Part shown: in pieces, positions 3,189 through 20,554 of the stretch | Position numbering within the stretch: position 1 is the stretch's first letter | Layout of the letters: every line of letters begins with the position of its first letter | Source: Mobula hypostoma | Taxonomy: Eukaryota | Assembly (NCBI RefSeq): GCF_963921235.1 | Contig: NC_086108.1 | Span: 64,172,001 to 64,236,000, forward strand | Direction: 5' to 3' | DNA length: 64,000 nucleotides | Made by a program: the position numbers and the translations under genes | Notes under the pieces: generated by a model | Seen by the model: only the letters and a program-made list of their open reading frames with translations | Told to the model about the DNA's origin: nothing | The model's database searches: none

Positions 3189-3417
3189 TGTTGTGTCTGT
3201 GCACAACTGCATATTGATTAAATTAAAGCACGCACACAGGAGATGGCTTTAACTGGTGTATTCACATCGCAACAAGAGAGACAGAGAACAATGCACATGC
3301 ATAGACAACAGCACATGTCCAGACAACGGATCAGTATGCATATGTAGACAACAATCCTTACATAGTGCTAATGGGGTGGGGGTCATTGCTCTAAAAGAAA
3401 TCGATCCATACATTACA
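3189..3417 (-). repeat. Gypsy 3' LTR
   Basis: tgttgtgtctgtg...catacattaca; aligns with 7489-7727; flanked by the PPT aaaagggggagtaag on the minus strand. Confidence 0.9.
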
Positions 3418-6769: not shown

Positions 6770-7727
6770 TGTTGTGTAGTCCCCAGTAAGCCCTCAGCTC
6801 ACTTTTGTTTAGGAGGAGCATCCTTTGGCCTGCCCAACTGGGTAATCGAGTTTGTGTAGATGCTGTGTGATGTACCCCACCCCGCCAAATAACAGACAGT
6901 ACACCATATGTGATTTACAGAATACAATTTATAGATTTTACTGGAACTATGTAATTAATAGAGATACAATATAAAAGGAAAGTAAAAGGTGCCAAACTTC
7001 TTAGAGTTCAACCACTTTGAGCGCTACCTTTGGAGCTCAATGAACGGAGTCTTTTTTCCACCATTCGATCCCTTCCGACCTCCTCGACCCGCCGCCTGGG
7101 ACCAACCATGGTGGTTGACCAGACACTCCACACAAGTCTGTCCTCGTCTCCTCTCCTCGCCAAAGACTCTGGGCCTCGGAGTCCCGTTCGGGGTCCAGTC
7201 CATTGCCCAGCTTACATCATCGCGTCTCCTCTCTCTGTCCCCAACGTGCCTTCTGCCCCAAAGCCCGCGAACAACAGCTTACAGACACACAAGAAAGAAT
7301 AACATCAATCTCAATTGGTTAATAAATGAATACAATTCTCATTATCAGTAATATAACCCAAACAAACTGCTAGAGAGAGAACCACTGTCTCAGCAGTTAA
7401 CATCACAGAGAAGCCATTTTATTTTTAGCATAACAAAGAAGCCATTTTATTAGCCTTAGCAGTAACATAAAAGAAGAAACCCCTTACAGTTGTGTCTGTG
7501 TGCAACTACATATCAATTAAATAAAAGCACGCACGTGGGAGATGGATTTAACTGATGCATGCACATTTCAACAAGAGATAACAGTACGCATGCGTAGACA
7601 ACAGTACATGTGCAGACAATAGATCAGTATGCATGCGTAGACACAACTTAATACACATGTGTAGACAACAATCCCATACATAGTGCTAAGGTGGATCATT
7701 GCTCTAAAACTAGATCGATACATTACA
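6770..7727 (-). repeat. Gypsy 5' LTR, interrupted by a solo LTR
   Basis: T6770+GTTG, then resumes after the insertion at 7489 (gttgtgtctgtg) and ends cattaca at 7727. Confidence 0.85.
6775..7488. mobile_element. Solo LTR of a different family
   Basis: TGTAG...TTACA termini; 4-bp TSD GTTG at 6771-6774 and 7489-7492; no coding sequence. Confidence 0.85.
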
Positions 7728-17830: not shown

Positions 17831-19146
17831 AAACTTTCTAGTTTTTCTTAAATTTTCCAACATCTAGCAATTCAATAAAACCCTTATATAATTCTTGCAA
17901 CATCTTCTCTCTTGTTATAACCCAACAATAAGTAGCCATTTGTTATCCCATGCATGCCTTCTGCCTCCTTCACTGCAGATTCCTATCTTTATGGCCTATG
18001 ACCAGTGCCATCTTCCTTTCTATTACATTTATGCTTATGGGATAGTATTGGATTGCTTTATCTTCCTTTTATCTTCCAATTAATAGTTCCTTCTCCTCAG
18101 ACACCAAACTAATTCATGACCTGGGCAAGATATTGTTTCTTTGTGCCCGACACCATTGTTGCTTTAGGCTATAAATATCAGGGATTTAGATTGCCAACTG
18201 AGCCTTGGAAAATTGCTGCTCTTGGGCTTTGTGTTGCGCAAGCAAGGTGGTTACAATGCTTCAATACTGGAGGAAGTGATTGTTTTGCCTTTATAGATGA
18301 TGTAACAATTAAGTAGATTGCTTTGTATTGCTATGACCATCCTGAGTGTTGTTCAAACTATTCTCATCTGAGCAAATAGACTATATCCATTATTCTCTTA
18401 ACATGTGCCTTAAGGATGGTAGCAAGACTTTAGAGGTTTAAGATCTGAGTCAGTTGCAATAGAATAATCTGCCTTTATCTAATTTATTAATTTATGTATT
18501 TAGTGTATGTACCTTTTGTTTGTGGTTAATTGTGACAGTGAGGAATATAGTGGTGATAATATTTCCAAATATCCAAGGGAATTCACTAGACCCTCCCTTG
18601 CAGAAGGTGGCATTGCCTGAAACTTACCTACAACTTATCACTTCAAATCTATATGTTGTCTGGGTGTTACTGCACACAAAGAAAGATTGCTTCATTATCT
18701 GAGGAATTTAACATGTAAGCATCATTATTATTGGCATTTTGATGGAAAGGAGATTACTGATTACGTTTTTGAAGGTGTTTAAGCCTTGACCTTTGCCCGA
18801 ACAAAATTCTGCAGCAAAGCCCTATGCAATGATGATTATCTCTGACATCATCATGTATCTTCCTGTGTGTGTGCAAATATACCAGGTAGCATTGACTATC
18901 GCCCCCTTTATTCCTGTTAGCCTATTTTATTCAAGAACATTGATGCTGCAATCAGAGATCAAGCAAGGGTTGGTTAGGCAATTGGGCAGACATTGGTCAA
19001 CTGATGGTTGGCTGTCAGGCAGAAGATGGAGGGTACCTGGGGTTGTGCAGATGATCAAGGTAAGGTCAAGCCTGGGGCAGGGACTAATTAATCAGGTTGG
19101 GCTGATTATATGATCAGCCTCACATACAAAGGGGTAGTCAGGCAAA

Positions 19147-19471
19147 GGTTCCTTAAGGTTGTTACTAGCTGGGGATGGTGGTGGGGAAAAGCTCCTACCA
19201 CCTATTAAATTACAAACAAGGGAAAATCTGCAGATGCTGGAAATCCAAGCAACACACACAAAATGCTGGAGGATCTCAGCAGGCCAGGTGGCATCTATGG
19301 AAAAAAGTACAGTTTTGGGCTGAGACCGTTCAGCAGGATGGACTGGTTACTACCTATTAAATGCTCCCAATTGGGTGCGCCTCAAATAGCCTCTGACAAC
19401 TATGTCCAACTCTTGGCCTTCACGCATGGCTTAGTTATTAAGCTCGGGGGAAATGTTTCTACTGACAGGAG
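19147..19471 (+). ncRNA. Degenerate HDV-like ribozyme with L3 hairpin insertion
   Basis: P1 GGTTCC/GGAAAT, P2 CTCTTG/CAGGAG, P3 GCC/GGG, L3 TTCACG plus hairpin, linker G-TTTCTA-CTGA. Confidence 0.55.
19211..19347 (-). mobile_element. Penelope terminal fragment inserted in element 1
   Basis: aacacacacaaaatgctggagg..gcatctatgg motif; 15-bp TSD TAC(C/T)ACCTATTAAAT at 19196-19210 and 19348-19362. Confidence 0.85.
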
Positions 19472-20345
19472 AAGGGGCAAAGGTGCCTTAAAACCTCTTG
19501 CTTCATGCAGATGGGGTCATCAGCCGTGGTTGGTAGCTCATCTACAAGAAGGAAATCTCTGATCTCAAACCTTCGCTGCCTTGCTCATGGGGAAGGCTTT
19601 GGGAGTTAACACCAAGGAAAAATCCAGAGCTGGATTCTCCAAGGCAGTCCTATGTTGAGTTCAACACTGACTGGAAACTCCTGAATGCTGCTGGTGACAA
19701 ACTATATCAGTCCCTGCCGTTCCTTTGCATTCATCAGTTGCATGGGGAGGGTAAGTGAGCAACAATTTATTCTCCTTATTGTACCACCCTGATTTGCGTA
19801 TCATGTAGACAGTTGCACACAGCATCCATTGTTGACTTCAACCATTGGAGGGTCTCATTAGTCAGGCATATACTGGGCAGCCAATGTCACTGGATGTTGA
19901 GGACCAGCAGTGAGGCTAATAGGCGACTGTGGAGAATGGTCGTGACAGAAAGTTAATGTAGGCACTTGGAGAAAGTTTAATGCCTCATATTCCCTGACTG
20001 TGACCAAGTTGGAGTAGAGTCATTTAACTCCACAGAGCTAGACTTTGACCCACTGATTGAGATCAGCCAGAACTTTTCCGGAATTTGTTTGGAAGTGGAA
20101 TTTTGCATTAAGTGAAATGAGTATTGTGTACCAGTTGATAGCAACACACCTGAATACAAGGCTCTGGGTGACTGCACATCACAAAAATGAAAGTACCAGC
20201 AAAAGTTTCAGCCCCCCGTCTTTTACTCAACCCTAAAAACAACGAACTCAGAAATAACATTTGCTCACTCCTGTTCAATGGCATCAGCAAATGAGCTCTT
20301 TTACTGTTCTATCGTCACCAAATAAACAACTTGTTCTATCCTACA

Positions 20346-20554
20346 GGGGATGGGTGAGTCTCAGACAGGACATTGTGCTCATTTAAGGAAGATGAAGGGT
20401 CTCTCATAGCCTCTCCTTTCCAGGTGTAGTGATCGCCGCAGGACCACTGTTTGGCTTGCCATGCAGGAGGTGACTCGCATATGGCCTTTCCTACACTACT
20501 GTGCCCATAGTAACGCCTTCACGCGGCATCCCTGTTTTTACTGAGTTTGCTATG
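20346..20554 (+). ncRNA. HDV-like self-cleaving ribozyme (no P4, long J1/2)
   Basis: P1 GGGGAT/ATCCCT, P2 CATAGTAAC/GTTTGCTATG, P3 GCC/GGC, L3 TTCACGC, J4/2 CTGA with candidate catalytic C20541. Confidence 0.78.

Follow-up and report, generated by a model that had tools for sequence, protein, structure and literature searches.

A candidate HDV-like ribozyme with a 20-nt hairpin inserted in L3 at the 5' end of Mobula hypostoma retrotransposons

HDV-like ribozymes have been described at the 5' ends of the non-LTR retrotransposons R2, R4, RTE, L1Tc and baggins, and cleavage followed by copying by the LINE machinery has been proposed for such ribozyme-headed LINEs (PMC6765202, PMC5786205; papers cited by accession or preprint number are referred to here for the accessible parts of their text). 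They share an exact 5' end, the order P1-J1/2-P2-P3-L3-P3'-P1'-J4/2-P2', a G1 that pairs with a pyrimidine, a C-N-R-A motif in J4/2 and a long structured J1/2. Published descriptors set L3 at TYYHCG(N)Y, 7-8 nt in length (PMC4870747, including its supplement). U20, C24 and G25 are required residues (PMC6326823), U20-G25 normally continue the stack on P3 (PMC1874588), and antigenomic C29 is flexible or bulged out (PMC3386971).

We analysed 64,000 nucleotides of Mobula hypostoma DNA (contig NC_086108.1, positions 64,172,001 to 64,236,000, forward strand; hereafter the window), in which an element starting at 19147 carries a 5' head of the same build. These heads resemble the retrotransposon HDV-like ribozymes in 5' position, helix order, G1 pairing, C-N-R-A motif and J1/2 build and differ from them in a 20-nt hairpin insert, which brings L3 to 27 nt. 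All three required residues precede the insert, which starts at the position equivalent to C29. The L3 7-mer of the CPEB3 ribozyme (U20-U21-C22-A23-C24-G25-U26) and its weak P1.1 partners G37-U38 are identical to those of the heads, whereas CPEB3 has a P4, a short J1/2, an intron location and no insert (bioRxiv 10.1101/2022.09.22.508989). As in the heads, drz-Agam-2-1 has a base-paired J1/2 domain beside P1 and possibly an extended P2, and this J1/2 build was shown to speed cleavage; no L3 insert is described in the accessible text and the word 'insertion' is absent from its main text (PMC4908430). P4 is replaced by a few unpaired bases in silkmoth R2 (PMC3774820) and in the minimal and theta ribozymes (PMC10879173), as it is here, but these come from other hosts and contexts and the accessible text mentions no L3 hairpin; nor do the accessible parts of PMC11331408 and PMC9901934.

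A full-text literature search found no description of a hairpin in L3 of an HDV-like ribozyme, although the figures or supplements of Ruminski 2011, Webb 2009, Webb and Luptak 2011 and Jimenez 2015 could contain one. Within this limit, we regard the L3-hairpin form as a candidate new variant of a ribozyme class that is itself known. The window element, which we assign to a family A, is built like RTESINE1/2, WALLSI3, MAR4_MD and Bov-A, in which a 5' UTR is joined to a 3' tail, the ORF is deleted, the tail is a microsatellite and the 5' end is kept (PMC5786205). Family A may thus already carry a repeat name in Repbase or Dfam, while the ribozyme variant is still undescribed within the literature searched.

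Table 1. Features of the family-A element and of a neighbouring element, in window positions
Feature	Position	Strand	Comment
Left TSD	19135..19146	+	11/12 identical to 19859-19870
Family-A non-coding bipartite retroposon (5' UTR-like part and 3' tail)	19147..19858	+	Carries a nested insertion
P1 5' strand GGTTCC	19147..19152	+	First base is the predicted cleavage site (G1)
J1/2 domain	19153..19409	+	Interrupted in the window copy; 101-108 nt in uninterrupted families
Nested 138-bp repeat fragment	19211..19348	-	Orientation presumed; 14-bp duplication 19197-19210 / 19349-19362, 13/14 match
P2 5' strand CTCTTG	19410..19415	+	6/6 pairs with CAGGAG, one G-U
P3 5' strand GCC	19416..19418	+	
Canonical 7-nt part of L3 (U20 U21 C22 A23 C24 G25 Y26)	19419..19425	+	Fits descriptor TYYHCG-Y
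20-nt L3 insert	19426..19445	+	Carries a 7-bp hairpin, 19428-19444
P3 3' strand GGG	19446..19448	+	Mutated in the window copy, 2/3 pairs
P1 3' strand GGAAAT	19449..19454	+	5/6 pairs, one mismatch in the window copy
G-TTTCTA-CTGA	19455..19465	+	G-U are the predicted P1.1 partners; 5-nt linker replacing P4, then CUGA
Predicted catalytic cytosine C19462	19462	+	Majority C, frequency 1.0 in each alignment, all six lineages compared
P2 3' strand CAGGAG	19466..19471	+	
Right TSD	19859..19870	+	After one CTCAT tail unit
Family-B element with canonical 7-nt L3	20346..20975	+	Comparison only; 3' end approximate

The initial annotation had read from this stretch a 12-bp TSD with one mismatch, the paired strands of P1, P2 and P3 and a hairpin inserted in L3; these and all other features that it named are present in the window sequence where it had placed them (Table 1). 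The hairpin, GCTTAG-TTA-TTAAGC at 19429-19443, extends to 7/7 pairs at 19428-19444 when G-U is counted. What had been overlooked is that 138 of the 325 annotated bases are a separate repeat inserted into J1/2, with six other matches within the window and absent from 29/29 other family-A copies; the actual head of the window copy is ~172 nt once it is discounted. We presume both the orientation of this fragment and its likeness to the CR1-type LINE/SINE tails of sharks and rays. Because two core pairs are broken, one each in P1 and P3, and J1/2 is disrupted, the window copy is likely dead, which agrees with its earlier description as probably inactivated.

An 11-nt deletion just 3' of the ribozyme (window 19498 region) is common to the window copy and three other loci (L002, L005 and L014), and may mark a subfamily or a recurrent deletion. 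Another repeat has two copies in the window, at 3190-3350 and 7489-7643, which are 83-84% alike. The family-B copy at 20346-20553 keeps all core pairs and may still be able to cleave; its sixth P1 pair is U-A where the family has C-G, likely through two CpG decays that happen to compensate. A TSD was looked for around the 20346 element and none was found.

To describe the family, the 3.48-Gb genome was searched with a core query, which gave 2394 first-look candidates; 40 were scored, and 29 other loci were aligned with the window copy. Family-A elements are roughly 580 bp long, do not code for protein and have a short microsatellite as their tail. Its copies lie ~10% from the column majority, with decay concentrated at CpG sites, and every core pair is intact in only 1/30. 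In 45 of the 58 family-A copies with an ungapped core, the letters that close P1' and the one after them read CTG (15), CCA (10), CCG (7) or other letters (13), and the two CpGs flanking P3' split into the same three classes (CG/TG/CA). These CpG-decay classes at three CpG sites point to a source that read C-GGC-GGAACC-G. The earlier prediction that a consensus would restore GGC and GGAACC thus holds; this core stretch is intact in at least one of the genomic matches listed, and other copies restore P1, P2 and P3 pairing.

A strict core pattern with the 20-nt insert gave 1520 matches across the genome and its reversed form gave 0, so that the hairpin in the L3 region, as first claimed, is not a product of chance. 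We also chose a second set of 29 family-A copies with a downstream query, so that the head itself was not selected for. Seventeen of these reach to within 12 nt of G1, and two more do so by eye, with indels. Column agreement is 0.29-0.65 upstream of G1 and 0.82-1.0 from +4 on; the 17 copies have no upstream sequence in common, and G1 itself is present in 10 of these 17 full-length copies. The insert is kept in 22/22 of the downstream-chosen copies that span L3, the others being truncated (6) or partly deleted (1). A common 5' boundary of this kind fits self-cleavage, and could also be explained by an internal transcription start or a nuclease block.

About 500 nt of the window element align at 75-77% to the 5' UTR of an autonomous family, D. 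The autonomous partner of family A itself was not found, and the A tail gave no blastn match to long elements; by eye it resembles the family-C tail. Contigs from four organisms carry family-A letters, including both sides of a covarying hairpin pair (pair 4, see below).

The insert also occurs in other families. Family C, found with a pattern built to exclude family A, has P1 GGCTCC/GGAGCT and the hairpin GGCATAG-TTC-TTATGCC; its copies lie on average 3.3% from the column majority, and 10/30 have all core pairs. Family D was reached through a protein search starting from a C copy, and has P1 GGTTCC/GGAACT and the loop CCT, with the insert in 25/25 loci (the query included the 5' end). Judged by their copies, both C and D are young families that multiplied with the insert in place. 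Well-kept heads with the insert include L238 (G000:C9:1327058-1327239, minus strand) and L226 in D, and L130 and L142 in C. One D copy (L189) holds an open 1048-aa frame with PF03372 and PF00078 (AP-type endonuclease and RT); among the matches listed, the named homologues of its protein come from sawfish, sea star, coral, amphioxus, snail and shrimp, and for a related ORF the nearest of the named homologues is from sawfish, at 80%. A pattern scan of metagenomes gave 48 matches, 47 without the fold and one (L105) a true homologous head from another organism, with P1 GGGTCC/GGACCT, the loop TCT and a shifted outer hairpin pair. By eye, the upstream DNA (L105:241-1200) resembles a DNA-polymerase-type gene, now broken, from what may be a large DNA transposon. 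In the viral collection, protein scans and the final pattern scan found no relative, and another pattern scan gave 2 matches; among prokaryote genomes, two short contigs carry a related ORF with <220 nt upstream, hence no head.

Three further loci, L291 (G000:C2:58803642-58803876), L345 and L356, have heads unlike A, C, D and F (for F, see below) yet carry the insert or part of it, and are probably a further family (G). In one family-C copy (L128:1266-2495) the endonuclease region is joined almost directly to the C-terminal end; it is an internally deleted intermediate between the full-length and short bipartite forms, and Pfam gave no match on its three short frames. Within J1/2 of family C alone, an internal AGCTCC (L130 head positions 43-48) pairs 6/6 with P1' and is a possible alternative P1; a second P1-like strand as a family-A feature was rejected, with 5/6 pairs outside family C. 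We also rejected L214, L216 and L219 as another family with an L3 insert, their sequences being read as coding.

We then compared L3 length across the genome. A pattern for a 7-nt L3 gave 17 matches: 14 of the 20346 type (family B), one unrelated, L262 and L258. L262 (G000:C66:10552747-10552776) is a family-C copy minus exactly the 20 nt, apparently an independent precise loss of the insert. L258 (G000:C36 near 64959455, minus strand) belongs to an insert-free family, F, with further loci among L265-L288. Of the 30 loci returned by a query taken downstream of the F head, 19 combine a head of the A/C/D type with a clean L3 of 7 nt, 1 has a partial deletion, 3 come from insert-bearing families and 7 lack a head. 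Matches with a shorter L3 number 35 in the genome (reversed control 0): 5 are clean 7-mers, all of the F type, 4 are nine-mers and the remaining 26 carry other partial deletions. Thirty of these 35 were examined individually. The 27-nt L3 of A, C, D, L105 and L291 lies outside the published 7-8 nt, and F and B have 7 nt. By column majority, the heads of A, C and D are 87-88% identical to that of F. In a tree of heads built from 30 rows after removal of the insert columns, and without B, which could not be aligned, F groups with L105 at only 67% support, and both a loss of the insert in F and a single gain elsewhere would fit its history.

The predicted fold is conserved across these lineages. 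At the family level, P1, P2 and P3 lie in nested double-pseudoknot order with P3' abutting P1'; G1 would pair as G-C in the presumed A source and pairs as G-U in B, C, D, F and L105. Each of U20, U21, C22, C24, G25, G37, U38, the catalytic C and the A of J4/2 is the majority letter in all six lineages compared (A, B, C, D, F and L105), so that the residues expected of an HDV-like ribozyme (U20, C22/G37 of P1.1, C24, G25, the catalytic C and the A of C-N-R-A) are found in all six, while the heads compared are only 71-88% identical overall. Rfam returned no ribozyme family, either for the window at the gathering threshold or for six loci at E<=1, and it missed the canonical B and F heads too.

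Paired positions change together. At P1 pair 3, families A, D and F have U-A, family C has C-G and L105 has G-C. At hairpin pair 4, family C has A-U where A, D and L105 have U-A, and hairpin pair 7 is G-C or G-U across lineages. The loop triplet of the hairpin differs from lineage to lineage (CUA, UUC, CCU or UCU). In an 11-row alignment of well-kept related copies, 97.3% of cells pair, against 34-49% in slid controls, and 3/500 shuffles are as high; 1/17 pairs changes on both sides (P1 being outside this count), and 361/500 shuffles are as high. From these alignments the covariation support appears real, though the events are few, with one two-sided change in the hairpin. The initial annotation had proposed natural covariation between the window head and that at 20346. 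That comparison is weak, since the two heads align only in the core; the informative changes come from family C and L105.

Taken together, these observations make it probable, in our view, that in intact source copies the 5' head is a self-cleaving HDV-like ribozyme that tolerates a 20-nt hairpin at the 3' edge of L3; the heads fall outside the L3 descriptor, yet are predicted to work like the HDV-like family. In the mechanism that we infer, the element would be transcribed within a longer host transcript, in which P1, P2, P3 and a P1.1 of one or two pairs would build the nested double pseudoknot without a P4. Cleavage 5' of G1 would fall to the cytosine of CUGA, and an autonomous relative would supply the APE-RT protein that copies the freed RNA, giving full-length copies that begin at G1. 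The insert would follow the last of the active-site residues (U20, C22, C24, G25), at the place of the flexible base 26/27, and its helix would point outward. The hairpin could also take over the stacking on P3 that U20-G25 normally provide, which would be a structural risk. Moreover, the 5' arm of the insert contains a decoy GGC that could mispair with P3, and the 3' arm would sequester it; we propose that the pairing of the hairpin is kept while its loop drifts because the 3' arm hides this decoy, which may be all that selection preserves. The hairpin is thus most likely a tolerated add-on and not a needed part.

A different reading, which we consider unlikely, is that the insert weakens or abolishes catalysis and that the head persists as a stable 5' structure or a promoter region, G1 being a transcription start or a decay stop; in one version, the RNA has two states, and pairing of L3 with P3'/P1' is the off state. 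Fold predictions lend it some weight. In nested folding, the probability of P3 is near 0 and the competing L3:P3'/P1' helix is the minimum in the D and A heads. When P2 is added, a rough sum before any pseudoknot penalty puts the native form ahead by 3-7 kcal/mol in the presence of the insert, compared to 8.5 in F, a smaller margin. HDV-like folds, moreover, aid R2 templates by their stability as well as by cutting (PMC11331408). However, the catalytic-site residues and P1 pairing, the latter through two-sided changes, are kept in insert-bearing lineages, and since this would otherwise be hard to explain, we favour selection for the full fold after the insert arose. J1/2 is predicted as a long closing helix with an inner hairpin in every family.

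The true P3' might instead be the first GGC (19428-19430), so that L3 would be 9 nt long and 18 nt would link P3' to P1'. This register was raised by the initial annotation as the alternative that could overturn its model, and we consider it very unlikely. In decayed copies the first GGC does have a slight edge in pairing with P3 (mean 2.90 vs 2.57 of 3 in A); it is also the preferred register in the window copy and the one left in the four genomic copies with an 18-nt deletion. The pairing difference, however, follows CpG decay at the second GGC, and those four 9-nt copies are scattered single deletions that form no family. With the P2 strands held single, P1+P3+hairpin beats the first-GGC register in 7/8 heads by 0.2-4.1 kcal/mol, the window copy being the exception, and the two-sided A-U change in family C requires the hairpin. 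Known descriptors put P1' directly after P3', and because family F, without the 20 nt, has a GGC in the canonical P3' place, abutting P1', we take the second GGC to be the P3' register. Least probable of all is that the hairpin was selected for a positive role, such as binding a protein, signalling in translation or making a tertiary contact: exactly 20 nt are kept in four families and in the copy from another organism, and dead copies do suffer deletions in the insert (30/35 short-L3 matches are partial deletions), but each family has its own loop triplet, three loop nucleotides offer little scope for pairing, and family F has amplified while lacking the insert.

As for the ribozyme-bearing elements themselves, an autonomous relative with one endonuclease+RT ORF (L189), the TSD, the microsatellite tail and the 5'+3' build are those of RTE and its bipartite derivatives. 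No named RTE reference occurs among the 120 L189 homologues listed or among the cluster members, and the RTE clade name used here, based on architecture and on known motifs, is a presumptive one. F and D have about 400 nt of 5' UTR in common at about 75%, whereas the F ORF is 31-40% identical to the D ORF, compared to 60% between C and D (decay of F lowers these figures); the family-B ORF is about as distant as that of F, and the B head aligns only in the core. Since the F head and 5' UTR are like those of D but the ORF is so divergent, a ribozyme-bearing 5' module has likely been swapped between lineages. A broader proposal, which we find conceivable while leaning somewhat against it as a whole, is that of an active HDV-like ribozyme with a helix in its catalytic loop, carried on a ~400-nt 5' cassette exchanged between distant RTE lineages, present with and without the hairpin across marine animals and invisible to searches with a fixed L3, in which the hairpin may tune the cleavage rate.

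The window copy itself matters little, being in all likelihood a dead member of a large family. L3 has been regarded as the single element of the HDV fold with no room to lengthen; if these heads cut, that view no longer holds, surveys will have overlooked a group of retrotransposon ribozymes, and L3 would be a site for grafting RNA modules beside the active site. Families D and F, with the same P1, P2 and P3, with or without the 20 nt, form a natural pair for which no designed sequence is needed. The likely swap of heads, in turn, suggests that ribozyme-bearing 5' UTRs move as modules.
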